Counted from the stretch's first letter, positions 7,463 to 52,796 are shown. The stretch: DNA of 58,096 nt from Acidobacteriota bacterium (GCA_039932995.1 JBDTOZ010000826.1:1-58096), one strand, 5' to 3'. Made by a program: numbers and translations. The notes: a model not told the origin generated them from the letters alone.

Positions 7463-7497
7463 GATTGTAGATTGAAAAGCGGAAATTGAGAATTGAA
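7463..7497. repeat. one-armed heptamer array (GATTGTA GATTGAA ... AATTGAG AATTGAA)
   Basis: 7-nt periodicity read directly. The unit is related to the GGATTGA array at 15003-15044. Confidence 0.5.
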
Positions 7498-8692: not shown

Positions 8693-8880
8693 CTCTGTGG
8701 AGCGGTGGACTTTAGTCCACTGGGCACTCGCGACGCGCGTGCCGAAGGCGGGTGAGGCGCTCGGGACGGTCGTGCCGGGAGCCTCGTTCAGTGACGCCGC
8801 CACGACGGCAGAGGGGAAGTGTCTCGCAAGAGCCTGGCAGGCTAAAGCCTACCGCTCCACAGGCACGCCTCCCTCCGATC
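8693..8880 (+). mobile_element. MITE-like non-coding repeat, copy 1
   Basis: About 90% identical to the reverse complement of 49983-50176. Near-terminal inverted repeats CTGTGGAGCGGTGGACTTTAGTCC / GGCTAAAGCCTACCGCTCCACAG (about 20/24). No ORF. Confidence 0.75.
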
Positions 8881-8957: not shown

Positions 8958-9614
8958 CTAGGCGTTGGCTCTCACGTAGAGCTCGACTCTACGATTGGCC
9001 TGACGGCCGCTGGCGCTATTGTTCGAGGATTTGGCCCGCGACTCACCGTAGCCGACCGCGTCCAGGCGCGATCCGCGAACGCCGACATCCTCGAGATAGT
9101 TGGCCACTGCGGTGGCGCGGCGGTCCGACAGGCGCTGGTTATAGGAGGCAGAGCCGGTCGAATCGGTGTGTCCCGCGACCACGATGGTGGTGTCGTTGTA
9201 CTGATTGAAGACCCGAGCCATCTCCCGCAGTTCGTCACGCGAGCTGGAGCGCAGGCCGGCTGAATCGAAGTCGAAGAGGATCTCATTGCGGACGGTCACC
9301 TTCAGTTCGTCTTCACCCGTGCGGGCCACGTCGATTCCGTCGATCTGGCGGAGCGCGCGCTCCTGTTTATCCATCATCGCTCCGACGATGGCACCGGTTG
9401 CGGTTCCGACCACGCCTCCGATGACCGCGCCGCGCTTGGCGCTTCCCTTACCGCCGAGGCGCTTGTTGTTTCCGATGATCGTACCGGCGATGACTCCGGC
9501 GACACCGCCGATGATGGCACCCTTCTTCGTCTTGTCGCGCTCGCTGGCAACATCGGCGAAGGCCATGGGGGCTGCCAGGAGGGCGATGAGCACTGCTGCG
9601 ATGAACTGTTTCAT
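8958..9614 (-). CDS. OmpA-family protein with glycine-zipper segment (paralogue of 7888-8532)
   Basis: Signal peptide MKQFIAAVLIALLAAPMAFA; GAIIGGVAGVIAGTIIG; GHTDSTGSASYNQRLSDRRA. AAGGAG RBS at 9622-9627 on the minus strand. Confidence 0.85.
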   Translation of the reverse strand: MKQFIAAVLIALLAAPMAFADVASERDKTKKGAIIGGVAGVIAGTIIGNNKRLGGKGSAKRGAVIGGVVGTATGAIVGAMMDKQERALRQIDGIDVARTGEDELKVTVRNEILFDFDSAGLRSSSRDELREMARVFNQYNDTTIVVAGHTDSTGSASYNQRLSDRRATAVANYLEDVGVRGSRLDAVGYGESRAKSSNNSASGRQANRRVELYVRANA

Positions 9615-9702
9615 GGTCTTGTTCTCCTTGTGTTCGCACTCCTCCATCGCAACGGCACTGCCAAGCGGGGATTGAGTAAGGAGGAAAACGGGCCGCCCGC
9701 CG

Positions 9703-10836
9703 GTGTACCATCCCGCCGTGTCCCTTGAATCCTCCGTGTCGGGCGTGCTGCGTAACCGACTCAAATCAGGAGACTTGCCGTTCGGCGAATTCGTCGAGCT
9801 GGTCCTCTACCACCCGCAATTGGGCTACTACGCCCGGGGTCAGAACCCGGTGGGGAAGGAGGCCGATTACGTCACCGCGCCCTTGCTCAGCCCGGTCTTT
9901 TCGTTCGCTTTGGGCAACCTCATCCAGGAGTTCCTGCGCCGACATGAGGGCGAGCTGTGCTCAATTGTGGACATCGGTTGCGGAGATGGCAGCCTGATCT
10001 GCGATCTCGCCTCGCGAGGTGAAGGGCAAACCACTCGATTCATTGGCGTCGATCGCGCGCTGGCCAGAGTGAACAGGGGTTCGTCTGAGAAGGGCCGGCC
10101 CGTCGAGTTCGTCAGCTCCCTCGAAGGGGTCCCGCGTGGGGGTTGCCATTTGATCGTGTCCAACGAGCTCTACGACGCTTTCCCGTTCTCCCGGCTGGTC
10201 CGGCGCGGCGACCGGATTCACGAGCTTTACGTGACGGAACGCGGAGGCGCGCTGGATTGGAGCGAACAGAGGGCACCTGAGGCTTACGAAGACTACTTCG
10301 CGGAACGGGGAGTGGCCTTGGACGAGGGACAGTTCGCGGACGTCTCGCTGGCCTGGGAAACCTTTCATGAGGAGGTCCTGCGCCTCGTGAAGCGGGGCCT
10401 CATCGTCACCATCGATTACGGATTCCCGGCGGAGAAGCTGTTTCATCCGCGCGCGCGTCGATTCGGAACGGCGGCGGCGTATGCGGGGCAGCGGGTCTCC
10501 CGCGATCTGCTGGCGAGCCCCGGCCAGCAGGACCTCACGGCGCACATCAACTTCACCGATTTGGAGCGGGCGGGAGCGCGCGAAGGTGCGCGAACCCTCT
10601 TCTTCGACCGGCTGGCCCGGTTTCTTCTGACCCTCGACATCACCAGCCACGAGCTGTTCCGTCCCGTACACGAGGTGGAGATCGCCAGCGCACAGGAAGG
10701 GGTGGACCTGCTTCAGGCTCGCGAGGACGCACGCCGGCTGGTGCTTCCTGACGGCATCGGCGAGGAGATGCGCGTGCTCGTCCAATCCAAGGGGGCGGAG
10801 ATGGAAGGCTGGTCGTTTCAGCGGGCGCTGTTTTAA
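9703..10836 (+). CDS. class I SAM-dependent methyltransferase, MidA/NDUFAF7 (DUF185) family
   Basis: FGEFVELVLYHPQLGYY...DYVTAP and IVDIGCGDGSL (SAM motif I) are typical of MidA. GTG start at 9703; an alternative GTG lies at 9718. Confidence 0.8.
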   Translation: MYHPAVSLESSVSGVLRNRLKSGDLPFGEFVELVLYHPQLGYYARGQNPVGKEADYVTAPLLSPVFSFALGNLIQEFLRRHEGELCSIVDIGCGDGSLICDLASRGEGQTTRFIGVDRALARVNRGSSEKGRPVEFVSSLEGVPRGGCHLIVSNELYDAFPFSRLVRRGDRIHELYVTERGGALDWSEQRAPEAYEDYFAERGVALDEGQFADVSLAWETFHEEVLRLVKRGLIVTIDYGFPAEKLFHPRARRFGTAAAYAGQRVSRDLLASPGQQDLTAHINFTDLERAGAREGARTLFFDRLARFLLTLDITSHELFRPVHEVEIASAQEGVDLLQAREDARRLVLPDGIGEEMRVLVQSKGAEMEGWSFQRALF

Positions 10837-10849
10837 CGCTTTGCGTTTT

Positions 10850-10999
10850 GTTGCTGGTTGCTGGTTGCTGGTTGTCTGCGGTGTATCGCCAGCCGGCAAC
10901 GCCGCGGAAGTACAACGTAGCAACCAGCAACCAGCAACCAGCAACCAGCAACCAGCAACGTAGCAACGTAGCAACGTAGCAACCAGCAACCTTCAGCAA
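10850..10999. repeat. heptamer-array palindrome, GTTGCTG type
   Basis: Left arm is (GTTGCTG)x3 then GTTGTCTGCGG (10850-10881). Right arm is CCGCGG ... (CAACCAG)x5, (CAACGTAG)x3, CAACCAG (10902-10999). Confidence 0.85.
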
Positions 11000-11052
11000 C
11001 TTTTGAAACGAAAACGTGATCCGCGTCACTACAGAGCGTGGGTACCGCTTCG

Positions 11053-11391
11053 ATGAGCTTTCCTTCCCCCGACCACTCCGCCGCGGACGAGCGGTGGGGC
11101 AACCAATGGCAGGCGCGGGCGATGCGGCTGCGCTCGATCGAGCGTAGCGCGCGCACGGGCGACGTGTCGTTCGGAGCCAGGCGCTGGGCCGTGACCACGT
11201 TGCGGAGAGAGGCGGCGTTCCTCGAGCGCCGCTTCCTCCGCACCGGCGAGCCGCTCGAGGAAGGATACGGAAACTACTACCTGGCGCTCGGTCTCTTCGT
11301 GGCCGGAATGACCCGTTCCCTGAGCGTGGCCACGCGTCACGCACGGGATGAGGATCGGGCCTTTCCGCACTCATTGATCTTCCTTTCTTGA
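11053..11391 (+). CDS. hypothetical protein (weak call)
   Basis: G/C-rich third codon positions and mixed amino-acid composition. No recognisable motif. The competing antisense ORF is Arg-rich. Confidence 0.3.
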   Translation: MSFPSPDHSAADERWGNQWQARAMRLRSIERSARTGDVSFGARRWAVTTLRREAAFLERRFLRTGEPLEEGYGNYYLALGLFVAGMTRSLSVATRHARDEDRAFPHSLIFLS

Positions 11392-11415
11392 CTCTCCCGG
11401 AACGCGGGCTAGAAT
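11388..11415 (+). promoter_or_regulatory. candidate sigma70-type promoter of the nuo operon
   Basis: TTGACT (11388-11393), 16-nt spacer, TAGAAT (11410-11415). The ATG at 11414 lies inside the -10 box, which argues for the nuoA start at 11447. Confidence 0.5.
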
Positions 11416-11446
11416 GGCCGCGGTCTCCAAGTCAGGCGAGCGAAGA

Positions 11447-11806
11447 ATGGCAAACTACTCAGTGCTGCTGGTAGCCGTGCTCATCGTATTGTCGGTCCCG
11501 GTGTTGACTCTGTTCGTCCTTGCGCCCCTGGTCCGCGCTTCGGTCCGAAACAAGGTCAAGCTCGAGCCCTACGAGTGCGGTGTGGCCCCCACGTCCCTTG
11601 CATTCGACCACCGTTTTTCGGTGCGGTACTTCCTCATTGCCGTCCTCTTCATCGTCTTCGATGTCGAGACAGTCTTCCTCTTCCCCTGGGCAATCCGGTT
11701 CAAACAGCTCGGCTGGCTCGGAGCCGCCGAGATGGCAGTGTTCCTGGCGATTCTCCTGGTCGGCTATTACTACGCCTGGAAGCGGAAGGTTCTCACATGG
11801 GTCTGA
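11447..11806 (+). CDS. nuoA: NADH-quinone oxidoreductase subunit A
   Basis: [16 protein letters not shown]..., YECG, FDVE..FLFPW motifs. The ORF is open from 11414, but that start overlaps the predicted -10 box. Confidence 0.85.
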
Positions 11807-12816
11807 TCGAGAACCGCTTCGAACCGAACGTTCTCACGACGACCGTCGACAAGTTTTTCAATTGGGCCCGCAAATCGTCGTTGTGGCCGATGCAGTTCGG
11901 TCTGGCCTGCTGTGCCATCGAGATGATGGCGGTTCTGGATCCCCGGCATGACATGGCCCGGTTCGGGGCCGAGGTCTTTCGCGCCACTCCACGCCAAGCG
12001 GACCTGATGATCGTCTCCGGCACGGTCACCGAGAAGATGGCCCCGATCGTCCGCCGCCTGTGGGATCAGATGCCCGATCCGAAGTGGGTGATCGCCATGG
12101 GCTCCTGTGCGACCTGCGGCGGTCCCTATGACACGTACGCCGTCACGCAGGGAGTCGATCGTCTCATCCCGGTGGATGTCTACATCCCTGGTTGTCCTCC
12201 CCGCCCCGAAGCGTTGATCTGGGGCCTCATGGAGCTGCAGAAGAAGATCGAGAAGATGCACATCCTCCGCAAGGGGGGAGAGGCGTACGACTTCGCTCGC
12301 GCCGCGGTGCGCGATTCGCTTCGTCCGGTCCATGAGGGGCCGGCGCTCCGCGCCGAGCAGGCGGCGCAGCTCAAGCCTGCTCCGATCTCGGGAGTGAAGC
12401 GCGCTCCGTCGGTTCCGGCCCCACCGAAACCGGTCCGTCCGGTGGCCGAGGCTGCGGCTCCGGTGGAAGGGGACGTCACGCAGGCGGACATCGAGCAGGC
12501 GGCCGCGCCTGAGCTGGTGCCGGGGGACGGCTCGGATGGTGCGTCGCCCACGGCGCCGTTCCACCGCGAAGATCTGATGCTCGTCGAGCGCATGCAGCTC
12601 GCCAACGAGATGGGCGGCAAGTTGGAGACGAAGTTGTTCGCGGCCATGGCGCAGACCGACTGCGGAGCCTGCGGCTGGGATTGCGAAGGCTACGCAAACG
12701 CCATCGCCACCGGGGAGACCGACGACATCTCATTGTGCGTCCCCGGCGAGACGGAGACGCTGGACATGCTCAAACTGTTGATGGAGGAGGCCGGGAAGCC
12801 GTTCACGGGCGCGTAA
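11797..12816 (+). CDS. nuoB: NADH-quinone oxidoreductase subunit B fused to a C-terminal RnfB-type 4-Cys Fe-S domain
   Basis: Canonical N2-cluster motifs [18 protein letters not shown] and GCPPRPE lie in residues 1-155. A Pro/Ala-rich linker follows, then [34 protein letters not shown]. The start overlaps the nuoA end. Confidence 0.9.
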
Positions 12817-12822
12817 GAGTCT

Positions 12823-13009
12823 GTTGCTGGTTGCTGGTTGCTGGTTGTCCGCGGGCCGTCGCTGAGCGATGGTCTTTCGGAGAACCGGCAACCGGGAACC
12901 TGCAAGTGAAGGTCGCAGGTTCCCCGTTCCTGTTTGCTGGGTGTTGGTTTCTCCGAGCGGATCGCTTGCGCGATCGGCCGCGGACAACCAGCAACCAGGA
13001 ACCAGCAAC
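12823..13009. repeat. nested heptamer-array palindrome filling the nuoB-nuoC spacer
   Basis: Outer arms 12823-12854 and 12978-13009 are complementary at 31/32 positions. An inner imperfect hairpin spans 12879-12903 / 12915-12954. The left arm differs by 1 nt from 10850-10881. Confidence 0.9.
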
Positions 13010-13012
13010 CGA

Positions 13013-13783
13013 ATGTCAGAGCAACCACCGCCAGGCCCGACTCCTCCTCCCGTCGCGCCGCCCGCGCCCGCGGGCCGGACCGTCGACGACATGAAGCGCG
13101 ACCCACTCGTGGCCGCGGCGGTCTCGCGCGCCGGCGAGGCCGTCCTCGATGCCCGCGAGATGGTGGGGGAGTTGACGCTCTTCATCGAGTGTGACCGGAT
13201 CGCGGAGGTCTGTCGCGTCTTCAAGGACTCCGGATTCGTCTATCTGGTCGACCTCTGCGGCGTGGACTACTCGCAGTTCCCGAATCACACCGGTCCGCGC
13301 TTCACCGTGGTCTACACGCTCTACTCTTTTCAAAAGAACGCGCGCGTGCGTCTCCGCGTCTGGACCGACGGCACCGTCCCGTCGGTGACCTCGGTCTGGA
13401 AGACCGCGAACTGGCATGAGCGCGAGACCTTCGACATGCTGGGCATCGACTTCACCGGTCACCCGAACCTCGAGCGCATCCTCATGTGGGATGGCTTCAA
13501 TGGTCATCCACTGCGCAAAGACTTTCCGGTGCGCGGCATCGACACCGGCGCGCGCATCTATCCCGAGGTCTTCCCACCGGGTGGCGGCCCAAAGGCGGGA
13601 TCGACGGGCAAGGACGTGAAGGACGTGAACGTCTACAAGGGCGAGTGGAAGCGCTACGGGCAATGGCCGGTCGCGCAGATCGGCGGCGGAGCTCCGGCCG
13701 CGAAACCGGCCGCACCGAAACCGGTGGCCAAACCGGTCGTCGCCGCGGCGCCTGTCGAAGCTCCGCCCGAGGAGGAAGCGTGA
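13013..13783 (+). CDS. nuoC: NADH-quinone oxidoreductase subunit C with Pro/Ala-rich N- and C-terminal extensions
   Basis: NWHERE.FDM.GI.F.GHP..RIL core motif. Alternative start ATG at 13091 (MKRDPLV). Confidence 0.85.
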   Translation: MSEQPPPGPTPPPVAPPAPAGRTVDDMKRDPLVAAAVSRAGEAVLDAREMVGELTLFIECDRIAEVCRVFKDSGFVYLVDLCGVDYSQFPNHTGPRFTVVYTLYSFQKNARVRLRVWTDGTVPSVTSVWKTANWHERETFDMLGIDFTGHPNLERILMWDGFNGHPLRKDFPVRGIDTGARIYPEVFPPGGGPKAGSTGKDVKDVNVYKGEWKRYGQWPVAQIGGGAPAAKPAAPKPVAKPVVAAAPVEAPPEEEA

Positions 13784-13802
13784 TGTTGCCGCCGACGCTC
13801 CC

Positions 13803-13830
13803 GGCAACCGCCAACCACCAACCGCCAGCA
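13803..13830. repeat. one-armed heptamer array (GGCAACC GCCAACC ACCAACC GCCAGCA) in the nuoC-nuoD spacer
   Basis: 7-nt periodicity read directly. No clear complementary arm nearby. Confidence 0.5.
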
Positions 13831-13888
13831 GGCGAGGCATCTCTCCTGCCGGCTGCCAACTGCGACCTGCCGAGCGCGGAGGTGGGGA

Positions 13889-15004
13889 ATGTTTGACGTC
13901 CATGAGATGGAGGTCAACTTCGGGCCGCAGCACCCGTCGACCCATGGCGTGCTGCGCGTCATCCTCAGGATCGACGGCGAGCGGATCATCGACGCCAAAC
14001 CGATCATCGGCTATCTCCATCGCGGCACCGAGAAGCTCTTCGAGCACATGGCCTATCCGCAGTGCATTCCGCACACGGACCGCATGGACTACGTGGCCTC
14101 GGCCACCAACAATCTGGGGTTCGTCGAGACCGTCGAGAAACTGCTCGGCGTCACGCACCTGATTCCCCGCCGCGCGCAGATCCTGCGCGTGATCCTGTCC
14201 GAGCTGCAGCGCATCTCCTCACACCTGCTCTGGCTGGCCACGCACGCCATCGACCTCGGTGCGATGACGCCGTTCTTCTACACCTTCCGCGAGCGCGAGC
14301 AGGTCCTGGACTTTTTCGAGTCCTACTGTGGTGCCCGTCTGACGCTGAACTGCATGCGCATCGGGGGCATGCCCGAAGACATTCCGCCGCGCTGGCTCGA
14401 GGACATCGAAGCCTTCATCGACAAGTTCGAGGACGCCATCGACGAGTACGAGTCGCTGCTGACGAACAACCGCATCTGGAAGAAACGCACCATCGGCATC
14501 GGCGTGCTCTCTCCCGAAGACGCGATCGACTGGGGCATCACCGGACCGCCGCTGCGCGGGAGCGGCGTGGAGTGGGATCTCCGCCGGGCCCAACCCTACG
14601 AGATCTACCCCGAGCTCGAGTTCGAGGTCCCTATCGGGAAGAACGGCGACACCTACGATCGCTACCTCGTACGCATGGCCGAGATGCGCCAGTCGCGGCG
14701 CATTCTCAAGCAGTGCATTCCCCTCATCAAAGCCACGCCGGTGGGGGATCTGAAAGCCAAGATCTCCAAAGTGATCCGGCCGCCGGCAGGGGAGGTCTAT
14801 CACTCCATCGAGTCCCCGAAGGGGGAGCTGGGCTATTACATCGTCAGCGACGGCAAGACCCAGAACGCCTATCGCTGCCACGTGCGGCCCCCCTCCTTCG
14901 TGAATCTGCAGGCACTGCCCGCGCTCACCAAAGGACACCTGGTCTCGGACCTCGTGGCCCTCATTGGAACGATCGACATCGTGCTCGGCGAGGTGGACCG
15001 GTGA
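13889..15004 (+). CDS. nuoD: NADH-quinone oxidoreductase subunit D
   Basis: NFGPQHPSTHGVLR, YLHRGTEK, and C-terminal DIVLGEVDR. Confidence 0.95.
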   Translation: MFDVHEMEVNFGPQHPSTHGVLRVILRIDGERIIDAKPIIGYLHRGTEKLFEHMAYPQCIPHTDRMDYVASATNNLGFVETVEKLLGVTHLIPRRAQILRVILSELQRISSHLLWLATHAIDLGAMTPFFYTFREREQVLDFFESYCGARLTLNCMRIGGMPEDIPPRWLEDIEAFIDKFEDAIDEYESLLTNNRIWKKRTIGIGVLSPEDAIDWGITGPPLRGSGVEWDLRRAQPYEIYPELEFEVPIGKNGDTYDRYLVRMAEMRQSRRILKQCIPLIKATPVGDLKAKISKVIRPPAGEVYHSIESPKGELGYYIVSDGKTQNAYRCHVRPPSFVNLQALPALTKGHLVSDLVALIGTIDIVLGEVDR

Positions 15005-15099
15005 GGATGGGATTGAGGATTGAGGATTGTGGATTGAGGATGGGAAGAGGACGGATGGCCACGCCCATCCTCAATCCTCAATCCTCAATCCTCAATCCC
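15003..15099. repeat. heptamer-array palindrome, GGATTGA type, in the nuoD-nuoH spacer
   Basis: 15009-15044 pairs with 15064-15099 at 35/36 positions; 19-nt loop. It begins inside the nuoD stop codon and ends 20 nt before the nuoH ATG. No U-tract follows. Confidence 0.9.
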
Positions 15100-15119
15100 G
15101 TTCTCCCAGGAGAGACGCG

Positions 15120-16256
15120 ATGAGTCCCGTGATCCTGAAGTATCTCCTCTGGCCGCTGGTCAAGTTCCTGGTGGCCTTCCTGATCGTTCAGATCATCGTG
15201 GCGGCGATGAACTGGGTGGAACGGCGGCTGCTGGGCTTGTTCCAGGCCCGGCTTGGACCCAATCGCGTCGGTCCGGGCGGGCTGCTGCAGATCATCGCCG
15301 ACCCGATCAAGTTCCTGCTCAAGGAAGACATCGTTCCGTCGAGCGCAGAGCGGATTGCCTACTTTCTCGGACCGATCTGGCCACTCATCCCCGCCTTCCT
15401 GGTCTTCTGCCTGATCCCGTTCGGTCCGCCGCCGATGTTCATCGCGGCGCGCGTCAACGTCGGCCTGCTGCTGATCCTGGCCATGACCTCCACCGCTGTT
15501 TACGGGATCATCCTCGGCGGCTGGGCCTCGAACAACAAGTACTCGCTGATGGGCGGCCTGCGCTCGGCCGCACAGATGGTCTCGTACGAAGTTCCCTTCG
15601 GACTCTCCATCGTGGGCGTGCTGATGATCTGCGGCACGCTCGATCTGGTGACGATCGTCCGGTACCAGGAGACCAACGCCTGGAACTTCCTCCCGCAGAT
15701 CGTGGGCTGTTTCATCTTCTTCGTCTCGATGGTGGCGGAGAACAACCGCACGCCCTTCGACCTCCCGGAAGCGGAGTCCGAGCTGGTGGCGGGTTATCAC
15801 ACCGAGTACTCGGCGATGAAGTTCGCGTTCTTCATGCTGGCCGAGTATTCGATGATGATCGTCAACTCCTGCCTCATCGTGACGCTCTTCTTCGGGGGCT
15901 GGACGCTGGGGATGTTCGAGCTCGGTCTGACCACCGACGTCCTGGTGGGGATGGGGGTGATGGGCGGCGTCATCGGCGCGGTGATCTTCTTCGTCAAGGT
16001 GATGCTGTTCCTGCTGGTGTACGTCTGGTTCCGGGCCACGTTCCCGCGGTATCGCTTCGATCAGCTCATGGACCTCGGCTGGAAGTTCCTGATTCCCCTG
16101 GCGCTGGCGAACATCGTCGTGACCGGGGGGTTCATCCTGGCCGGTCAGGAGCGGCTGATGTACTGGATCGGCGCCGGGACCATCGCCCTCACGGCATTCT
16201 TCCTCTTCCGACCGAAACGCAAGCGCGCCCCGCAGAAGGTGGCTCATGCAAGTTGA
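15120..16256 (+). CDS. nuoH: NADH-quinone oxidoreductase subunit H
   Basis: ERRLLGLFQARLGPNRVGP, polytopic, EAESELVAGYHTEYS motif. GGAGAG RBS at 15109-15114. Confidence 0.95.
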   Translation: MSPVILKYLLWPLVKFLVAFLIVQIIVAAMNWVERRLLGLFQARLGPNRVGPGGLLQIIADPIKFLLKEDIVPSSAERIAYFLGPIWPLIPAFLVFCLIPFGPPPMFIAARVNVGLLLILAMTSTAVYGIILGGWASNNKYSLMGGLRSAAQMVSYEVPFGLSIVGVLMICGTLDLVTIVRYQETNAWNFLPQIVGCFIFFVSMVAENNRTPFDLPEAESELVAGYHTEYSAMKFAFFMLAEYSMMIVNSCLIVTLFFGGWTLGMFELGLTTDVLVGMGVMGGVIGAVIFFVKVMLFLLVYVWFRATFPRYRFDQLMDLGWKFLIPLALANIVVTGGFILAGQERLMYWIGAGTIALTAFFLFRPKRKRAPQKVAHAS

Positions 16257-16782
16257 GTATCCGAAGCCGAGGTGGACGGACAAGTTCCTGCTCCTGGACA
16301 TGCTGGAGGGGTTGAAGACCACGTTGCGTGAGCTCTTCAAGCCCAAAGTCACGATCCGTTACCCGGAAGAGCGCATGGAGCCGGCGGATCGGTTCCGGGG
16401 CATGTTCAAGTTCTCCTACGACCGCTGCATCGCCTGCAAACTGTGCGCGGTGGCCTGTCCCATCGACATCATCTACATCGACGTCCACGACGACATCATC
16501 GAAGAGGGCGGCAAGAAGAAGAAGGTCAAGGTCCTGGACCGGTATGACATCGACGTGAAGCGCTGCATGTTCTGCTCGCTTTGCGAGGAAGCCTGTCCCA
16601 CGAAGCCGAAGTCGATCTGGCTGACCACCAAGACTTACGAGCTGGCCAGCTACGACCGCAACGATCTGTACTTCAACATGCAGCAGCTCGAATACTGGGA
16701 CGACCGGCCCAAGTACACGGGATTGCCCGGCGATGACACCGGTGCGGATGACGGGAAGCTGATCGCAGGAGGCACGAAGTGA
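16246..16782 (+). CDS. nuoI: NADH-quinone oxidoreductase subunit I
   Basis: Two 4Fe-4S motifs, CIACKLCAVACP and CMFCSLCEEACP. Confidence 0.95.
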   Translation: MQVEYPKPRWTDKFLLLDMLEGLKTTLRELFKPKVTIRYPEERMEPADRFRGMFKFSYDRCIACKLCAVACPIDIIYIDVHDDIIEEGGKKKKVKVLDRYDIDVKRCMFCSLCEEACPTKPKSIWLTTKTYELASYDRNDLYFNMQQLEYWDDRPKYTGLPGDDTGADDGKLIAGGTK

Positions 16783-16793
16783 GCGATGCACGC

Positions 16794-16863
16794 GGAAGGA
16801 TGAACGATGAACGTGGGCACGCTGCCCGGCTCATCGTCCATCACTCGTCGTTCATCGTTCTCC
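16794..16863. repeat. heptamer-based palindrome (GATGAAC type) in the nuoI-nuoJ spacer
   Basis: GAACGATGAACG pairs with CGTTCATCGTTC. The right arm shows a 7-nt period (CTCATCG TCCATCA CTCGTCG TTCATCG). Confidence 0.7.
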
Positions 16864-16873
16864 ACGAACACAC

Positions 16874-17554
16874 ATGGAATCCGTAACGAGCCAGATCCCT
16901 CTCCTCGTCTTCATGGTGATCGGAACGATCGCCGTGGCTTCCGCCATTCTGGTGGTGGCCATGCGCAATCCCGTGCACTCCGCGTTGTTCCTGCTCCTGA
17001 CGTTCCTCTGCGTGGCCGTGCTGTTCGTGATGCAGTCCGCCGAGTTCGTGGCGGCCGTGCAGGTGCTCGTGTACGCGGGCGGAATCATGGTGCTGTTCCT
17101 CTTCGTGGTCATGCTCATCAATTACCGGCACCTCCCGGAGGAGGCCGTGTTGTCGAAGGTCTGGCTGGGGGGAGTGGGCGTCGGCCTGGCGGTCTTCATC
17201 CTCTTTTTCACCATGGTGCGCAACGGGGTCTACGCGGACCAGGTGCCTGACGCTTCGAAGAAGCTGGGCACCGTCACCGAGCACTACGTCACCGAGCACC
17301 CCAGCGATCCGAACAAGATGGTGCGACGCACACGCGAACGCGAGAACCGCAACTCCGAAGCGGTGGCCATGGCGCTCTACAACAAGTACCTGGTCCCCTT
17401 CGAAGTGGCCTCGCTGTTCCTGCTCGTGGCCATGATCGGCGCGATCGTGATTGGCAAACGCGAGCTCTCCGCCGAGGAAGAGGAGTCCACGCCGCAATTC
17501 ATCCTGGAGCGCGCGGAAGTGGAGAAGGAAGTGAAGGAGGCCATGAGTGCGTGA
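16874..17554 (+). CDS. nuoJ: NADH-quinone oxidoreductase subunit J
   Basis: [40 protein letters not shown]. Confidence 0.9.
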
Positions 17555-17607
17555 CGTGCGCCGGATGCTCGTGGCTTCTTCGCCGGCCTTCTCCCAGGGA
17601 GGGCGGC

Positions 17608-17910
17608 ATGCCTAGCACCGCTCAATATCTGATGCTGTCGGGCACTCTGTTCGCCATTGGACTGATCGGAGTGATCGTGCGACGCAACATGATCACGGTG
17701 CTCATGTCCATCGAACTGATGCTCAACGCCGTGAACATCAACCTGGTGGCCTTCTCCCACCGCCTGGCCGACCTGGAGGGTCAGGTCTTCACGGTCTTCG
17801 TGATCACCGTGGCCGCCGGCGAAGCAGCCGTGGGCCTGGCCATCATCATCCAGTTGTACCGGCTGCGCAGCACCGTGAATGTGGACGAGGTGAAGACCCT
17901 TCATGGTTAA
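17608..17910 (+). CDS. nuoK: NADH-quinone oxidoreductase subunit K
   Basis: 100 aa from the ATG at 17608, with a GGGAGG RBS upstream. [16 protein letters not shown] and [11 protein letters not shown] motifs. Confidence 0.9.
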
Positions 17911-20062
17911 AGAAGCCCTGATCCTCGTGGTCCTGCTCCCCGCGCTCGGCGCGCTGATCAATGGTCTGCGCGCCGCCGCGAATCCGCATGCGCCGAAGAA
18001 CAAGACCGTGACCAAAGCGGTGGCGTTGGGAGCGACACTGCTCTCGGCCCTGACGGCCACAGCCGGTGTGGTCCTCCCGTACCTGGGCCAGCACCAGGCT
18101 TTGAAGTTCTCGTATTACGAGTGGATCCCCGCGGGCATGGGCTCGGTCGGCTCCGCCATTGCGAACTTCTCGGTCGAGCTGGCCTTCCGGATCGATCCGC
18201 TGTCCTGCACCATGCTCATGATCGTGACGTGGGTGGGCTTCCTCATCCACGTCTACGCCACCGGCTACATGGCCCACGAAAAGGGCTACACGCGCTTCTT
18301 CACCTACCTCAATCTGTTCATGTTCATGATGCTGCTGCTCGTCCTCGGGGCGAACTACATGGTCATGTTCGTGGGGTGGGAAGGGGTCGGGCTCTGCTCC
18401 TATCTCCTCATCGGGTTCTATTACGACAAGAACTTCGCCGCCGACGCCGGGAAGAAAGCGTTCATCACGAACCGCATCGGCGACTTCGGCTTCATCCTGG
18501 GCGTCTTCCTGATCTTCAACACCTTCGGCACCGCGGATTACGAGAAAGTGTTCGCGCTCGCTGCCAGCGGCGGGATGGCGCAGTACGGCGGGATGGCCAC
18601 GGCCATCTGCCTGCTCCTGTTCGTCGGCGCGGCCGGCAAATCCGCCCAGGTGCCGTTGTACGTGTGGCTACCCGACGCGATGGCCGGACCGACTCCCGTC
18701 TCCGCGCTCATCCACGCCGCGACGATGGTCACGGCCGGCGTCTACATGGTCGTTCGCTCCAATGTGCTGTTCCGCATGAGCGAGACCGCCTCCATGACCG
18801 TGGCCATCGTGGGCGCGGTCACGGCGATCTTCGCGGCCACGATCGGGATCGCCCAGAACGACATCAAGAAGGTCCTCGCGTACTCGACGGTATCGCAGCT
18901 GGGATTCATGTTCCTGGCCGCAGGGGTGGGCGCGTATACCGCCGCGATCTTCCACGTGATGACGCACGCCTTCTTCAAGGCCTGCCTCTTCCTCGGCGCC
19001 GGATCGGTCATTCACGGCTGCGGCGGGGAACAGGACATGCGCAAGATGGGCGGTCTGCGAAAGTACATGCCGTCCACGCACTGGACCATGGCCATCGCCA
19101 CCTACGCCATCGCCGGGCTGCCTTTCGCCGCGGGATTCATCTCCAAGGACGAGATTCTCGCCAATGCCTGGGGCTATGCGCCGGCCATCTGGACCGTCGG
19201 GGCCATTGCCGCGGGCTTCACCGCCTTCTACATGGCCCGGCTCTATTTCATGACGTTCTGGGGCACGTATCGGGGCGCACAGACCGTGGGAATCGAGCAG
19301 TCCGAGCCCGAGCACGCGGGCCACGATCTGATCCCGGACCGTCCGCACCTCGATGATGGGGACGCGCACGCCGGCAAGGCCCACGGTCACCACGCGCACT
19401 CCCATGATCCGCACGAGTCCCCGGCATCGATGACCGGCGTGCTCTGGATTCTCGCCGCGCTTTCCGTCCTGGGCGGTTTCATCGGCTGGCCCGCGGCGTT
19501 GGGCGGCTCGCATCCCACGCCCTTCCAGCGCTGGCTGGAGCCGGTGCTGTTGCCCATCGCTGGGCAGGCATTTCATTTCCACGAGGCCGCGCACTCGCTG
19601 GAATGGATCCTGATGGCCATTTCCGTGGGCATCGCGGCATTGGGCGTGCTGCTCGCGTATCGCCTCTATGTCCGCAGGCCGCCCGTTCCGGACGTCCTGG
19701 AGCCGCGTCTCGGCCCCGTGTACCACCTGCTCGCCAACAAGTATTGGGTGGACGAGCTCTATGACGCCACCGTCATCGCCGGAACGCTGGCCTTCAGCAG
19801 GATCCTCTGGTGGATCGATGCGAACATCGTGGACGGCATCGTCAACGGCGTTCGGCACGTGACGGTGATCGCACTCGGATACGGCTCCAACCTGTTCGAC
19901 CGCTATGTCATCGACGGCGCCGTGAACGGCGTGGCCGCGGGTGCCAAGGGCGGATCCATGATGTTTCGACGCATGCAGAGCGGTCTGGTGCAGAACTACG
20001 CTCTGGTGATGGGCGGTGGCATCGTCCTGATTGCACTCGTGTACCTGTTCATGAAGCCGTAA
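17903..20062 (+). CDS. nuoL: NADH-quinone oxidoreductase subunit L
   Basis: 719 aa antiporter-like subunit. [14 protein letters not shown], and a His-rich loop before the C-terminal lateral helix. Confidence 0.95.
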
Positions 20063-20078
20063 GGGAGAGCCAGTCGCG

Positions 20079-21686
20079 ATGATTCTCAACCTGATCACTT
20101 ACATCCCGCTCATCGGAGCGCTGTTGATCCTGTTCTTCGTGAACAAGGCGAACACACGGGCCATCCGCTGGCTGGCCACCGCGACCGTGGTCGTGGACTT
20201 CATCGTCTCGCTCTACATCTGGTTCAACTTCAATCCCGCGGGGACCGGGGATGGTCTTTGGCAGTTCCAGTACATCGCGGACTGGATTCCGTCCCTCGGA
20301 GTGAAATATCACTTCGGTGTCGACGGCATTTCCGTGCTGCTCATCCTCATGACCACGTTCATGGGCATCATCGCCGTGGTCTCTTCCTATACGGCGGTCC
20401 ATCATCGCGAGAAGGAGTACTACGCCCTGCTGCTGATGCTCCAGACGGGCATGATCGGCACGTTCTGCGCGCTGGACTTCTTCCTCTTCTATGTGTTCTG
20501 GGAAATCATGCTCGTGCCGATGTACTTCATCATCGGCATCTGGGGTGGACAGCGAAAGCTCTACGCGGCCATCAAATTCTTCCTCTACACCCTGGCCGGC
20601 TCCGTATTGATGCTGTTGTCGATCCTGGCGCTCTTCTTCTTCAATGATGGCGGCATCTCCTTCCTCAACATTCAGGGGCTGGGCAACGGGGCCTCGTTCA
20701 GCGTGCTGAAGTTCCATGAGATCGGGCATCTCATCCCGCCTTCACTGCAGTTCTGGATCTTCCTGGGCTTCTTCTTCGGCTTCGCCATCAAGGTGCCGAT
20801 GTTTCCGTTCCATACCTGGCTGCCCGATGCGCACGTGGAAGCTCCCACGGCCGGCTCCATCATCCTGGCGGCGGTGCTGCTGAAGATGGGCACGTACGGG
20901 TTCGTGCGGTTTGCGTTGCCGATTCTTCCCGATGCCACGAGGCAGCTCCTGGTGCCCATCGCGGTGCTGGCTCTCATCGGGATCATCTACGGTGCGCTGG
21001 TGTCGCTGGTGCAGAAGGACATGAAGAAGCTGGTGGCCTACTCTTCGGTCTCCCACCTCGGCTTCGTGATGCTGGGGATGTTCGCTCTCAACCCGATGGG
21101 TCTGCGGGGCTCCATCCTGCAGATGATCAACCACGGCATTTCCACGGGGGCGCTCTTCCTGCTCGTGGGGATGGTTTATGAGCGCCGCCACACCCGCATG
21201 ATCGCGGACTACGGCGGTCTCGCGAAACAGATGCCCCTGTACGCGGCCCTGTTCCTCATCGCGGCGCTCTCTTCGATGGGCTTGCCGGCGCTCAATGGCT
21301 TCATCGGCGAGTTCACCATCCTGCTCGGTGTAGCCAATTCCACCGCCTACGGGACGATGGCCTATGCGGTCATCGCCGCGGTGGGAATCGTGCTTGGCGC
21401 CGCCTACCTGCTCTGGCTCTATCAGCGTGTGTTCTGGGGACCGCTCGACAATCCCGCCAATGCCGCGCTGCAGGACGTCAACCGGCGCGAGTTGGGGATG
21501 ATGCTGGCCCTGGTGGTGCTCATGATCTGGATCGGCATCTATCCGAAGCCACTCTTCGACGCTATCGAACAGCCGGTCGATTACATCGTACGGAAGGTCG
21601 ACCCCACCTATTTCGACAAGAAGCCCCTTTCGTATCCGGCTACTCCCGCCGCGGTCGAAGAGCACCATGAGGTCGCGGTCAAATGA
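20079..21686 (+). CDS. nuoM: NADH-quinone oxidoreductase subunit M
   Basis: Antiporter-like; FYVFWEIMLVPMYF, HTWLPDAHVEAPT. Confidence 0.95.
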   Translation: MILNLITYIPLIGALLILFFVNKANTRAIRWLATATVVVDFIVSLYIWFNFNPAGTGDGLWQFQYIADWIPSLGVKYHFGVDGISVLLILMTTFMGIIAVVSSYTAVHHREKEYYALLLMLQTGMIGTFCALDFFLFYVFWEIMLVPMYFIIGIWGGQRKLYAAIKFFLYTLAGSVLMLLSILALFFFNDGGISFLNIQGLGNGASFSVLKFHEIGHLIPPSLQFWIFLGFFFGFAIKVPMFPFHTWLPDAHVEAPTAGSIILAAVLLKMGTYGFVRFALPILPDATRQLLVPIAVLALIGIIYGALVSLVQKDMKKLVAYSSVSHLGFVMLGMFALNPMGLRGSILQMINHGISTGALFLLVGMVYERRHTRMIADYGGLAKQMPLYAALFLIAALSSMGLPALNGFIGEFTILLGVANSTAYGTMAYAVIAAVGIVLGAAYLLWLYQRVFWGPLDNPANAALQDVNRRELGMMLALVVLMIWIGIYPKPLFDAIEQPVDYIVRKVDPTYFDKKPLSYPATPAAVEEHHEVAVK

Positions 21687-23161
21687 CGTGGGGCGACACG
21701 CTGTACCTTCTTCCGGAGATCGTCATCTCCCTGGGTGCATGCCTGCTGTTGCTTGCGCCGGTGAGCGGCCTCCGGATGGGGAGTGGGGCGGCGAAATGGG
21801 TGATGCTGGCTTTGCTCGCGCTCACGGCCGGCGCGCTCTTCGCCGCCTCGTATCTGGTGACCACCGGCCCCGATCCGACCCCCGGCTTCGCGTCGATGTT
21901 CGCTCTCGACTCGTTTTCGATCTTCTTCAAGCTCCTGTTCATCGTGACCATGGCCATGATCACGCTGCTTTCGGATACGTTCCTGCGCGATTCGCGGTAC
22001 TCGCCATGGGAGTATTACTCGCTGCTCGCGTTCGCGTTGTGCGGAATGATGTTCATGGCCAGCGGCATCCACCTGGCGGCCATCTACATCGGCCTGGAGC
22101 TGATGTCGCTGTCGAGCTACATCCTGGCCGGATACTTCAAGAACGAACAGAAGAGCACCGAGGCGGCCATGAAGTATTTCGTGCTCGGCGCGGTGAGCTC
22201 GGCCATCCTGCTGTATGGGATCTCGCTGATCTACGGAGTGACCGGCACGCTCAACCTGGCAGGTGTGTCGCGCTCCCTCTCCACGCTGGTCAGCAATGAC
22301 GCCTTGATGTTCGGGATCATGATGTTGGGCGCGGGGCTGTGTTTCAAGATCGCCGCGGCTCCGTTTCACATGTGGACCCCCGACGTGTACGAGGGGGCGC
22401 CCACCCCGGTCACGGCGTTCCTCTCCACCGCTTCCAAGGCCGCGGCCTTCGCCATTTTCGCGCGCATCTTCTACACCGGCATGCACCACTTCCGCCTGGA
22501 CTGGCAGAACGTCCTGGCCGCAATCGCCGCTCTCTCGATGGTGGTGGGCAACCTGGCCGCCATCACCCAGGACAACGTGAAGCGCATGCTCGCCTACTCG
22601 TCCGTGGGTCATGCGGGCTACGTGTTGCTGGGTGTTCTCGCGGCCAACGAGATGGGCCTGTATGGCGTGCTCGTTTACGCCGTGGTGTACGTGTTCGCCA
22701 CGCTGGGGATCTGGGCCACCGTGCTGATGCTGGAGCGCGGCGACTACGCCGGGGAGAAGGTGGACGACTTCAATGGCCTGAATTCCCGGGCCCCGTTCTG
22801 GGCCTTCGCCATGATCGTCTTTCTGCTGTCGCTGGGCGGCATTCCCCCTACGGCCGGCTTCATCGGGAAGTACCTCCTCTTCTACGCCGCGGTGCAGTCC
22901 GGGTTCGGCTGGCTGGCCGTGATCGCCGTGCTGATGTCGGCGGTCTCGATGTTCTTCTACTTCCGCCTGGTCATGGCCATGTACCTGAAGGAAGGGCGAG
23001 AGGCCAGACTGACCGGCGGCGGCTCGCTGAAAGTGGTGGCCTTGATCGCGCTGGCGGTCACCCTGATTTTCGGAATCCTTCCGCAGCCGTTGATCCAGTC
23101 GGCGAAGGATTCGGGGCGCAGAGTGGCCACCCGGCCGACGGCCGCCCTGCTCGGACGATGA
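21683..23161 (+). CDS. nuoN: NADH-quinone oxidoreductase subunit N
   Basis: Antiporter-like; GLELMSLSSYILAG, APFHMWTPDVYEGAPT. The start overlaps the nuoM stop. Confidence 0.95.
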   Translation: MTWGDTLYLLPEIVISLGACLLLLAPVSGLRMGSGAAKWVMLALLALTAGALFAASYLVTTGPDPTPGFASMFALDSFSIFFKLLFIVTMAMITLLSDTFLRDSRYSPWEYYSLLAFALCGMMFMASGIHLAAIYIGLELMSLSSYILAGYFKNEQKSTEAAMKYFVLGAVSSAILLYGISLIYGVTGTLNLAGVSRSLSTLVSNDALMFGIMMLGAGLCFKIAAAPFHMWTPDVYEGAPTPVTAFLSTASKAAAFAIFARIFYTGMHHFRLDWQNVLAAIAALSMVVGNLAAITQDNVKRMLAYSSVGHAGYVLLGVLAANEMGLYGVLVYAVVYVFATLGIWATVLMLERGDYAGEKVDDFNGLNSRAPFWAFAMIVFLLSLGGIPPTAGFIGKYLLFYAAVQSGFGWLAVIAVLMSAVSMFFYFRLVMAMYLKEGREARLTGGGSLKVVALIALAVTLIFGILPQPLIQSAKDSGRRVATRPTAALLGR

Positions 23162-49982: not shown

Positions 49983-50176
49983 GTCCGGAGGGCGGCGTGC
50001 CTGTGGAGCGGTAGGCTTTAGCCTGCCAGGCTCTTGCGAGACACTTCCCCTCTGCCGTCGCGGCGGCGTCACGGGACGAGGCTCCCGGCACGGCCCGTCC
50101 CGAGAGCCTCACCCGGCTTCGGCACGTGTGTCGCGAGTGCCCGGTGGACTAAAACTAAAGTCCACCGCTCCACAAC
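49983..50176 (-). mobile_element. MITE-like non-coding repeat, copy 2 (inverted relative to copy 1)
   Basis: Its reverse complement aligns with 8693-8880 at about 90% identity, with a 5-nt TTAGT duplication. It lies between divergent gene starts. Confidence 0.75.
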
Positions 50177-50225
50177 TCAAAGTTAGCTCGTATGCCCTCC
50201 TGCCTCCTGCCTCGAGCCCTGCCCC

Positions 50226-50245: not shown

Positions 50246-51286
50246 ATGACGGAAGACAGTACGCTCGACGAGCTGGTGCGACTGCGCGCCGAGCATCGTC
50301 AGCTGAGCGATCTCCTGAAGCTCATCCAGGAGTTGACGTCCACGGTCGTGCGGAGCGAGTCCGTCAGCGACCTGTTCGCGCGCGCCTTCGCGACGCTGTT
50401 CGGGTGCGTCAAGTTCGACGCCGGTGCCGCGGTGATGATCGAACAGCACCTGGAGCTTTTCGTCAGCACCCGTGCCGACGCCGCTGAACTGCTCGACGAC
50501 CGCTTGGTGACGAGCATCCGCCGCACGTTGGAGGAGCGGATTCCGGTCTCCTTCGCCTCGACGGAGATCGTAGTCATGGCCGAGAGTCATGACCTCCCGG
50601 TGGACGACAGGGTCGCGGGGATCGACTTCCAGTCCTCCGCTCTGCTCGCGCACGAGCAACGAACCGCGGGGTTGCTGCTAGTGGCGCGCATGGAGCCTTT
50701 CTCCGATCGCGAGGAACAGATCCTGGCCATCTTCGCCACGCAGGTGTCGATGCTCCTGGACACCATCCGGGCGCGGGAGCGCATCGTCAACCTCTCCGAG
50801 ACGGACGACCTGACCGGGGTCTGGAACCGCCGCTACTTCCGCCGTCAACTGCCTCATGAGATCGAGCGGGCGCACACGTTCGGCGTGCCTCTGGCCCTGC
50901 TGATCTTCGACATCGACGCCTTCAAGGAGATCAACGACAACTTCGGGCACCTGATCGGCGACGTCGTGCTTTCCGAGTTGTGCGGATCGGTGAGGGAGAC
51001 CCTCCGTCCCACGGACATGCTGGCGCGCTACGGCGGCGACGAGTTCGCGGTCATCCTTCCTCATACGGATCTGGGCGGAGCCACCGCGGTGGCCGAGCGG
51101 ATCCTCACGCGCATCCGCGCGGTGACCATCCCCACCGACGACGAAGGGGCCATTCAATGCTCCGTCTCGATCGGCATTGCCGAATATCACCGCGACGAGG
51201 ACCGCTCCAGCGAGGATCTCGTGCGCCGCGCGGACGAACGACTCTATCTCTCGAAACGGCACGGCAAAAATCGATACACTGCATAG
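50246..51286 (+). CDS. GAF-domain diguanylate cyclase (GGDEF)
   Basis: DDLTGVWNRRYF, DIDAFKEINDNFGH, and ARYGGDEFAV active site. N-terminal ~170 aa are GAF-like. Confidence 0.9.
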   Translation: MTEDSTLDELVRLRAEHRQLSDLLKLIQELTSTVVRSESVSDLFARAFATLFGCVKFDAGAAVMIEQHLELFVSTRADAAELLDDRLVTSIRRTLEERIPVSFASTEIVVMAESHDLPVDDRVAGIDFQSSALLAHEQRTAGLLLVARMEPFSDREEQILAIFATQVSMLLDTIRARERIVNLSETDDLTGVWNRRYFRRQLPHEIERAHTFGVPLALLIFDIDAFKEINDNFGHLIGDVVLSELCGSVRETLRPTDMLARYGGDEFAVILPHTDLGGATAVAERILTRIRAVTIPTDDEGAIQCSVSIGIAEYHRDEDRSSEDLVRRADERLYLSKRHGKNRYTA

Positions 51287-51287
51287 G

Positions 51288-51354
51288 GCTGGTTGGCGGT
51301 TGACGGTTCAACCGCGACGACAACCCCAACCGCAACCGCCAACCGATACCAACC
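51288..51354. repeat. heptamer-array palindrome (GGTTGGC/GGTTGAC type) abutting the tpiA ATG
   Basis: GGTTGGCGGTTG (51291-51302) is exactly complementary to CAACCGCCAACC (51333-51344). Both arms show 7-nt periodicity. Confidence 0.75.
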
Positions 51355-52549: not shown

Positions 52550-52634
<85 letters not shown>

Positions 52635-52649
52635 ATCAGCATTCCACGC

Positions 52650-52678
52650 AAAAAGGCTCGCCACTGGCGAGCCTTTTT
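52650..52678 (+). terminator. rho-independent (bidirectional-type) terminator after tRNA-Leu
   Basis: Stem GGCTCGCC/GGCGAGCC with a 3-nt loop, flanked by AAAAA and TTTTT. Confidence 0.8.
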
Positions 52679-52689
52679 GCGTTGCACGC

Positions 52690-52781: not shown

Positions 52782-52796
52782 ACTTTGGCAACCGAA

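Follow-up and report, generated by a model that had tools for sequence, protein, structure and literature searches.

The 58,096-nt sequence JBDTOZ010000826.1 (positions 1-58096) of an Acidobacteriota bacterium (GCA_039932995.1), called the window below and analysed over its whole length, carries a dispersed family of intergenic palindromes whose arms are tandem arrays of 7-nt units. These hairpins are probably cargo-less members of a widespread insertional class, similar to the STRRs (short tandemly repeated repetitive sequences) of cyanobacteria and to the intervening sequences (IVSs) of rRNA genes. In this class we place the STRR hairpins, the GGGAATC pairs of Xanthomonas, the stems bracketing PF05635 genes in about 20 phyla, and the 23S rRNA IVSs which carry an open reading frame (ORF). 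The build itself is already known, and the elements of the window are new acidobacterial members of a known, unexplained kind; what is new are the rules of the class and its strong, cross-phylum and apparently unreported association with the PF05635/IVS family. Membership is argued from five features which the hairpins share with the class, namely period, polarity, arm length, placement and organisation in multi-copy families, together with the occurrence of empty, cargo-less and cargo-carrying states at one and the same spacer.

Heptanucleotide hairpins of the window

Tandem Repeats Finder (TRF) identified 13 arrays of period 7 in the window; for the other periods between 1 and 11, no array with at least 2.8 copies was found. 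The number expected by chance, calculated from 50 second-order Markov resamples of the window, is 0.52. A first-pass annotation, made from the sequence alone, had described heptamer-armed palindromes dispersed over at least nine intergenic sites. This description is borne out: ten sites are recognized, all of them (10/10) intergenic on a gene map drawn from G+C content at third codon positions (GC3) and Pfam matches. Five lie within an 11-subunit nuo operon, as assigned by Pfam, namely 3' of a Methyltransf_28 gene (mt28) and in the nuoB/nuoC, nuoC/nuoD, nuoD/nuoH and nuoI/nuoJ spacers; the others are found in the gap between a GGDEF gene and tpiA, 3' of a tRNA, 3' of accB, and upstream of two more genes.

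The arrays reported by TRF are located at 10850-10874, 10919-10991, 12823-12847, 12883-12905, 12985-13010, 13801-13827, 15002-15041, 15067-15098, 16780-16813, 16831-16860, 50196-50213, 52690-52708 and 52757-52779. Reverse-complement partners, as originally proposed, were recovered by inverted-repeat search, and six sites fold into hairpins of -31 to -131 kcal/mol. The inverted partners are 14998-15044/15064-15110 (47 nt, 89%), 12820-12862/12970-13012 (43 nt, 88%), 52691-52719/52751-52779 (29 nt, 90%) and 10850-10874/10921-10945 (25 nt, 100%); the last of these pairs in three registers. For none of the six folded hairpins does any shuffle reach the native stability, and the three best z-scores range from -10 to -13.

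The ten sites are listed below, with minimum folding energies in kcal/mol and the folded interval in brackets.

7463-7497: degenerate one-armed GGATTGA/GAAATTG-like array, upstream of a minus-strand gene ending at 7373; below the TRF threshold, weak remnant
10850-10991: GTTGCTG-type hairpin, in the gap between the Methyltransf_28 gene (stop 10836) and nuoA (11038); left arm 10850-10881, GTTGCTG x3.6 then GTTGTCTGCGG; right arm 10919-10991, AGCAACC x10, three 8-mer variants included; fold -80.5 (10846-10994), z = -10.0
12823-13010: GTTGCTG-type hairpin filling the nuoB-nuoC spacer; arms 12823-12854 and 12978-13010; 107-nt loop with a nested hairpin at 12883-12935; fold -130.6 (12817-13013), z = -13.0
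13801-13830: one-armed C-rich array, CAACCGC/CCGCCAA x3.9, nuoC-nuoD spacer; fold not significant, z = -1.0; orthologous array present in locus L060
14998-15110: GGATTGA-type hairpin filling the nuoD-nuoH spacer, 47 nt at 89%; nuoD stop codon inside the first unit, TGAGGAT, and nuoH Shine-Dalgarno after the 3' arm; fold -85.2 (14995-15112), z = -12.3; variant units identical and in the same order in L061
16794-16863: GATGAAC-type hairpin, decayed, nuoI-nuoJ spacer; 65% matches; fold -37.1 (16785-16870), z = -3.7; orthologues in L060 and L067 perfect
50196-50213: short CCTCCTG x2.6 array, spacer upstream of the GGDEF gene, beside a REP-like element; absent from the first-pass list
51288-51354: degenerate GGTTGGC-type hairpin of mixed period 6-7, between the GGDEF gene (stop 51286) and tpiA (51355); fold -31.5 (51284-51356), z = -4.7
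52690-52779: GTTGCTG-type hairpin, 3' of a tRNA and a terminator-like palindrome; inner boundary GTTGTCTGTGG / CCCCAGACAAC; fold -53.2 (52686-52785), z = -7.9
55247-55270: remnant C-rich arm CCAGTAG CCAGTAA CCGGCAA, 3' of a biotin-carboxyl-carrier gene (54695-55192); read by eye, too short for TRF

Caveats to the first-pass list are the mixed-period site at 51288-51354, the decayed one at 16794-16863, and the weak remnants at 7463-7497 and 55247-55270.

The left arms at 10850-10881 and 12823-12854 do differ by a single base, and the inner boundary GTTGTCYGYGG is found on four arms of the window. The core of the arm, GTTGCTGGTTGTCYGYGG, an 18-mer including the TGYGG inner boundary, occurs in 17 copies, only in Acidobacteriota among the loci fetched for comparison (designated by L numbers). 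The GTTGCTG copies can hence be taken, as proposed, as one element family. An exact 27-mer of a window arm was found in at least 59 loci, belonging to Acidobacteriota, Lysobacterales, Chloroflexota, Verrucomicrobiota, Planctomycetota, Bacteroidota, Actinomycetota, Pasteurellaceae and others, and often continues there straight into arrays of the related units GTTGTCG, GTTGTCA and GTTACTG. A conserved module of about 90 nt, without any Rfam match, was also noticed in the loops of GTTGCTG/GTTGTC hairpins from L007, L008 (two copies) and L032 (metagenome-assembled genome, MAG, JANMSA01); it reads …gattgtttgcagccgctggaggcggcKcgtagggtagccggtggtgcgagc…gcgagcgaccaccgg….

No Rfam family accounts for the arrays. 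At gathering score, the tRNA was the sole match in the window, and a permissive scan added merely sub-threshold matches to eukaryotic miRNA precursors, a generic effect of long hairpins; rRNA was not detected in the window by Rfam. A literature search with the exact GTTGCTG dimer sequence returned chance matches only.

Regularities of the arrays

The window has a G+C content of 63%, and its nearest public relatives are MAGs of the Acidobacteriota class Thermoanaerobaculia, the top NuoD match showing 96% protein identity (JANMSA01). By using NuoD similarity, 80 nuo loci were fetched, 36 of which, from Thermoanaerobaculia genomes with NuoD 77-96% identical, were taken as the close set.

In the close set, period 7 is nearly exclusive, with 117 arrays versus at most 27 for any other period; the corresponding count for the window is 10 versus 0 for the other periods between 1 and 11. 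Versions of the same build with units of 8 or 9 nt (GAGGGCAG, CAAAGTCT, AATAGGACG) were observed in L290 (Gemmatirosa kalamazoonensis plasmid 1), L062, L075 and L118, so that period 7 is strongly preferred, not obligatory. The arm richer in G than in C is the 5' one in 75 of 80 inverted pairs; since an inverted repeat is identical on both strands, this polarity genuinely belongs to the element and does not depend on the strand chosen. When read in the G orientation, units contain 42% G and 12% C. Arm lengths, determined in nuo loci unselected for repeats, show a mode of 30-33 nt (75 of 163 arrays), with almost none above 34 nt and a few runaways of 65-103 nt; such a sharp mode is not the geometric tail expected of free slippage.

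Arrays are strongly excluded from coding sequences. Within the window and the 36 related loci, only 22 of 127 arrays fall in generously called "core" coding sequences, versus 74% expected (p = 1e-40). The first-pass statement that none lies inside a confident coding sequence holds for the window and fails for its relatives: heptamer arms were found in frame within the Methyltransf_28 coding sequence of five of them (L061, 2199-2293; L071, 2626-2787; L072, 2824-2853; L078, 3295-3371; L118, 2711-2809), where they lengthen the protein by as many as 39 residues. Two in-frame arms, in L061 and in L118, flank the conserved RFFGVDR segment, the "loop" being native host coding sequence.

Two functional readings of the repeats were rejected. 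On the first, an array of period 7 would place a stop codon in all three frames, and a G-rich 5' arm could thereby shield the host gene; as a driver this stop-codon protection was discarded, a stop triplet being present in 42% of distinct units versus 38 +/- 3% in composition-matched shuffles. Intrinsic termination was discarded as well, as no terminator-like match is found at any hairpin: a consensus scan of positions 9500-18000 gave 7 matches versus 5.4 expected, none at a heptamer hairpin. Selection on individual RNA pairs is likewise unsupported, since on the sense strand G.U mismatches are not favoured over A.C (29 versus 46, and 51 versus 44).

Turnover at orthologous nuo spacers

Synteny is kept across the fetched nuo loci, which makes spacers directly comparable. 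Among the 36 close relatives, about 24 have the nuoD-nuoH spacer occupied by a hairpin or array of period 7, with units that vary by genome: GGATTGA, GAACGAT, GGCAGAA, GAAAATT, GAATGTT, GAATGCA, GAATTTC, AACCAGA, GGCAGTG and others. Similar hairpins of period 8-9 are found in three genomes, and an unrelated palindrome in one. About nine have no element, four of these with an ATGA stop/start overlap. In two relatives (L092, L093) the arms enclose a PF05635 gene. Even nearest-neighbour genomes, with nuoD 93% identical at the DNA level, have different occupants at this spacer. One and the same unit recurs at several spacers of a genome, and at different spacers in different genomes. Where orthologous copies can be recognized (L062, L068, L070), arms are more conserved than loops. 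A single metagenome scan for unit-number polymorphism, with a 30-mer of the nuoD 3' end, gave 58 loci, none of the same species (best upstream identity 0.78).

A separate class of palindromes, GTCATCCTGAGC...GAAGGATC, sits in the same nuo spacers in some genomes. It was found, with its complement, in L061 (nuoJ-nuoK), L077 (nuoD-nuoH), L078, L079 and L085 (nuoI-nuoJ), as a triple tandem in L079; it also occurs in the loop of L057 and beside arrays in L018/L037.

These data bear on the idea that the hairpins are RNA elements selected by the host within operons, where the stem-loops would stabilise the upstream mRNA, uncouple translation or attenuate nuo transcription, their sequences drifting in a compensatory way. 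The consistent placement between stop codon and Shine-Dalgarno, the occupation of nuoD-nuoH in some two thirds of the genomes whatever the sequence, the better conservation of arms than loops in the three recognizable orthologues and the extreme folding energies would all be expected, and a role in stabilising transcripts or coupling translation has been suggested for STRR (PMC2670836). Against it speak the roughly nine relatives without a spacer element, including those with overlapping genes, the unrelated GTCATCCTGAGC-type palindromes at the same sites, the lack of a G.U excess over A.C, and the hairpins without terminator-like match. Moreover, the same modules are found upstream of genes, after a tRNA, inside coding sequences and around a selfish ORF. 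We therefore regard this explanation as unlikely.

Another possibility is that the arrays are ordinary simple sequence repeats (SSRs). Replication slippage favouring 7 nt, as in the polymerase-footprint idea (Mrazek 2007), combined with template switching at quasi-palindromes, would generate such structures in any non-coding gap, with no identity, mobility or function. Very unequal arms are in keeping with such an origin, and with the expansion by slippage proposed at first pass (3.6 versus 10 units at 10850/10919; 4 versus 15 in L038); so are the variant 8-mers amplified locally, the host stop codon often lying within the first unit, as though locally seeded, the mismatch spectrum without RNA-level selection, and the inter-arm loop of mt28, which is native host sequence. 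Local slippage does not predict an arm mode of 30-33 nt with a cliff above 34 nt and no geometric tail, nor a polarity fixed in nearly all pairs. It also leaves aside units which, together with a non-repeat inner boundary, are identical at many sites of several genomes, the swapping of whole occupants between near-identical genomes, and the link to one protein family described below (p ~1e-71). A purely slippage-based origin is thus quite improbable. Rapid site replacement, units common between sites, conserved inner boundaries and in-frame copies in coding sequences favour insertion or ectopic copying over purely local growth, while unequal arms and locally amplified 8-mers indicate that slippage acts on top of insertion.

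Association with the PF05635 family

The elements of L092 and L093 consist of GAGTTGT arms and their complement around a gene of about 150 codons, whose product matches PF05635 (23S rRNA intervening-sequence protein; 9.9e-35) and TIGR02436 ("four helix bundle protein"), and weakly bAvd. The closest homologues of this protein (74-75% identical; L284-L288) are found in the same spacer, between the same GAGTTGT arms. There, the C-terminal tail of the PF05635 protein is encoded by the 3' arm.

Next, 80 PF05635 loci from about 20 phyla, for a total of 456 kb, were chosen solely by conserved peptide patterns of the protein. They contain 181 arrays of period 7 versus at most 18 of any other period, with the same distribution of arm lengths as the nuo loci. 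Period-7 arrays reaching 2.5 copies number 192; 108 of them are no farther than 200 nt from a PF05635 gene, in a zone corresponding to 7% of the bases (binomial p = 8.6e-72). For the 82 PF05635 genes present, an array is found upstream of 51 and downstream of 56, and 30 are bracketed by complementary arrays. Polarity is again evident: upstream arrays are G-rich in 45 of 53 cases, and downstream arrays C-rich in 43 of 56.

The association extends to cultured organisms. In PLSDB, the family is mostly found on plasmids of Nostoc, Calothrix and Anabaena, hosts where STRR was described, and arrays accompany all six plasmid copies inspected from cultured strains (Nostoc, Calothrix, Geminocystis, Riemerella, Gemmatirosa). 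In Nostoc edaphicum, AGTAGGG x7.9 and TCCCTAC x4.9 surround a PF05635 gene located between two ribonucleotide reductase genes; the Riemerella copy has GGTTTAA/TAAACCT arrays, and the Gemmatirosa copy an octamer version. In Xanthomonas campestris, repeat #15 (GGGAATC x4; Rehm et al., supplementary table) occupies the gap from bccP to XCC0516 and runs over the annotated start of the latter. XCC0516 is the PF05635 protein whose structure has been solved (2GSC; the entry has five chains), and a homopentameric toroid has been described for it. Other reports place PF05635 genes between cas genes and in rRNA insertions of bacteria of the candidate phyla radiation (CPR). No paper stating a general association between PF05635 and heptamers was found in the literature searched.

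The remnant arm at 55247-55270 is 3' of a biotin-carboxyl-carrier gene, and XCC0516 with its GGGAATC array likewise adjoins bccP; this may be chance, or insertions may repeatedly land in the accB spacer.

A pattern scan for a link between the GTTGCTG family and PF05635 gave one true match, in a Ruminococcaceae MAG (L280), and no acidobacterial example; L140 (Lysobacterales) has mixed GGTTGTC/GGTTGCT arms. PF05635 proteins 65-74% identical and with the same arm unit (AGGTGTC, AGGGATC) were seen across phyla, namely in L204 and L213 (Terriglobia) with L207 (Acidimicrobiia), and in L158 (Dehalococcoidales) with L170 (Deltaproteobacteria). The sequences suggest joint transfer of a PF05635 gene and its arms.

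Other features of the window

The nuo operon spans 11038-23161, in the order nuoA-B-C-D-H-I-J-K-L-M-N; nuoE, F and G are absent, as in the 11-subunit type. NuoB (11575-12816), at 413 aa, is unusually long, and a "putative Fe-S cluster" domain (PF04060) is found at its C-terminus. The tRNA (52550-52631) is immediately followed by a near-perfect 25-nt palindrome (52639-52689) with A/T runs on both sides, similar to a bidirectional terminator, and then by the heptamer hairpin.

A second repeat family, unrelated to the heptamers and resembling repetitive extragenic palindromic (REP) sequences, is found at 8695-8862 and 50002-50174 as inverted pairs of CTGTGGAGCGGTrGrCTTTAGyCyrCC, 90-133 nt apart. 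It is similar to the TGTGGGAGCGG REP sequences of Lysobacterales loci.

Comparison with known repeats

The first-pass annotation knew of no described class with exactly this build, and this does not hold in view of STRR (PMC2670836), the Xanthomonas GGGAATC repeats (PMC4692102), heptamer families of Geobacter and the stem of the Coxiella IVS; its choice of STRR as nearest analogy was right. STRRs are "usually made up of 7 bp repeats" and, in Nostoc/Anabaena, give hairpins in the hupS-hupL gap and upstream of hoxW (PMC2670836); the title of Vioque 1997 places them inside the RNase P RNA gene of cyanobacteria as well. Like the repeats of the window, they are tandem 7-bp units, dispersed, multi-copy and intergenic, and form hairpins between co-transcribed genes, here nuoB/C, D/H and I/J. 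They differ in host (heterocystous cyanobacteria versus Thermoanaerobaculia) and in units: none of the classical STRR units CCCCAGT, TTGGTCA and CAACAGT occurs in tandem in the window. Fixed polarity, a 30-33 nt arm module, site turnover and a PF05635 link do not appear in the STRR descriptions consulted.

Two Xanthomonas genomes contain 186 and 183 GGGAATC arrays, mostly of four units, with 70-75 convergent inverted pairs; the same report notes that in many bacteria heptamers are the long SSR found in excess (Rehm et al. 2015, PMC4692102). Modal unit number, convergent pairing, intergenic location, position conserved between species and variable length are common to these arrays and to the hairpins described here. 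The Xanthomonas units contain G3 tracts and have been read as G-quadruplex elements, in contrast with the window units GTTGCTG, GGATTGA, GATGAAC and GGTTGGC, which contain none and are unable to form G-quadruplexes. Arrays of TAACTGA are known in Beggiatoaceae, cyanobacteria and Bacteroidetes (MacGregor 2015), and heptanucleotide families with four or five units in tandem in Geobacter metallireducens (Aklujkar et al. 2009). For none of these known repeats is there an Rfam family.

From such precedents, the arrays could be sites acting at the DNA level, either G-quadruplex repeats (Rehm 2015) or tandem sites of a global transcription factor (Aklujkar 2009). The strong G-strand bias, the G-quadruplex formation shown for GGGAATC repeats (PMC4692102) and the binding of proteins by heptamer direct repeats in other systems would fit; most units, such as GTTGCTG, GGATTGA, GATGAAC, GAAAATT and GAATGTT, have no G-runs, the locations are 3' ends and intercistronic gaps rather than promoters, and the unit changes between genomes at one site. 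A role of this kind is very unlikely.

The 23S rRNA IVS of Coxiella, with its PF05635 ORF, has a 28-bp terminal stem with two or three GACAGAT heptamers on the 5' side, in strain-dependent number; RNase III cuts in mid-stem in vitro, and in vivo ends map to mid-stem by rapid amplification of cDNA ends (PMC4990558). ORF-containing IVSs of Coxiella and Leptospira share with the window a heptamer-built stem (about 28 bp; 25-47 bp in the window). The PF05635 ORF of their loop is absent in the window, whereas L092, L093 and L284-L288 have one in the orthologous spacer. They are inserted in helix 9, 25 or 45 of 23S rRNA, whereas the copies of the window are in mRNA spacers.

Rickettsia palindromic elements are reportedly palindromic selfish DNA able to persist in frame inside protein genes. 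In-frame persistence is also seen here, in the mt28 gene of L061, L071, L078 and L118; the Rickettsia elements differ in having no heptamer periodicity and no sequence relation, and the copies described here are mostly intergenic.

REP sequences, with the bacterial interspersed mosaic elements (BIMEs) and REP doublets forming hairpins (REPINs) which they compose, are likewise dispersed intergenic inverted doublets in operons, for which mRNA stabilisation has been proposed. Mobilisation of the window hairpins as a REP/REPIN system, by a REP-associated tyrosine transposase (RAYT, an IS200/IS605-like Y1 transposase), would agree with their multi-copy doublets of variable linker and with the separate REP-like family in the window. 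A single heptamer arm is not itself palindromic, having no self-complementary stretch of at least 4 nt, and REPs lack the period-7 structure inside the arms. The one cargo that recurs is PF05635 and not a Y1 transposase, and no RAYT partner is evident: a non-exhaustive scan of 20 window ORFs revealed no transposase. A RAYT-driven system is scarcely credible here.

Interpretation and proposed mechanism

Membership in the insertional IVS/STRR-like class, the reading we prefer, leads to the following scheme. Each arm is a module, some 30-33 nt long, of 4-5 heptamers in tandem; the arm rich in G and poor in C is the 5' one and its complement the 3' one, on both strands. Permissive non-coding gaps are occupied, mostly the stretch from directly behind a stop codon to the following Shine-Dalgarno, and rarely, in frame, variable protein loops. 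Multi-copy families are formed in each genome, and the occupant of a site is replaced faster than the neighbour gene accumulates about 7% nucleotide divergence. Arm length is altered by slippage.

Further steps are more conjectural. The nuo hairpins are probably co-transcribed, and their near-perfect 25-47 bp stems without U-tract may serve as RNase III substrates or 3'-end stabilisers, not as terminators; the IVS precedent and perfect stems of this length without terminator-like match point in this direction. Since G.U is not favoured over A.C, complementarity of the arms seems to be maintained at the DNA level, by copying or by recent insertion, rather than by selection on RNA pairs. Hypothetically, a PF05635 pentamer encoded elsewhere in the genome could be the trans-acting partner recognising the heptamer arrays, and five PF05635 protomers would match an arm about 4.5 units long.

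Several observations weigh against this interpretation. No PF05635 gene is found within the 58-kb window. In the 369 kb of the close nuo loci, cargo-less hairpins far outnumber PF05635 genes (117 arrays versus 2 genes), and mostly have units other than those of the copy with cargo at the site concerned, so that a direct parent-offspring relation is not established. PF05635 proteins with the same unit are barely more alike than others (56% versus 51% identity, a comparison confounded by phylogeny). Signs of transposition, for instance a target duplication, were not identified. Within one family the loops of the copies are unrelated, and the mt28 loop is native host coding sequence; insertion as a single unit is thus hard to invoke, and a simple cut-and-paste model leaves these points unexplained. 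Finally, the sense-strand mismatch spectrum does not favour G.U over A.C.

A bolder proposal, which we put forward tentatively and consider possible rather than probable, is that STRRs, Xanthomonas/Geobacter arrays, acidobacterial hairpins and ORF-containing rRNA IVSs are one pan-bacterial class of selfish elements, with the PF05635 pentamer as its sole protein. The pentamer would read about 4.5 heptamers, approximately one unit per protomer, and promote copying or maintenance of the arms; ORF-less hairpins would be non-autonomous derivatives, comparable to MITEs (transposable elements of the miniature inverted-repeat type).

Implications

Repeats of STRR type have been seen since 1990 and never explained. 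The present analysis joins the genome-wide excess of heptamers, STRR hairpins, Xanthomonas GGGAATC pairs, ORF-carrying 23S IVSs and the PF05635 family, a very widespread "four helix bundle" family with no assigned function, homologous to Avd, the accessory protein of diversity-generating retroelements (DGRs). For annotation, the hairpins account for ORF starts extended in error and for unusual in-frame insertions. Fixed polarity, a fixed arm length near 30-33 nt and a pentameric partner provide concrete, testable hypotheses for the culturable Xanthomonas campestris and Nostoc PCC 7120. If the stems are RNase III sites in operons such as nuo, they would bear on the segmentation of polycistronic mRNAs in many soil bacteria; if the hairpins do form one pan-bacterial class, this would explain the long-noted heptanucleotide excess of bacterial genomes and give free-standing Avd-like proteins a function.

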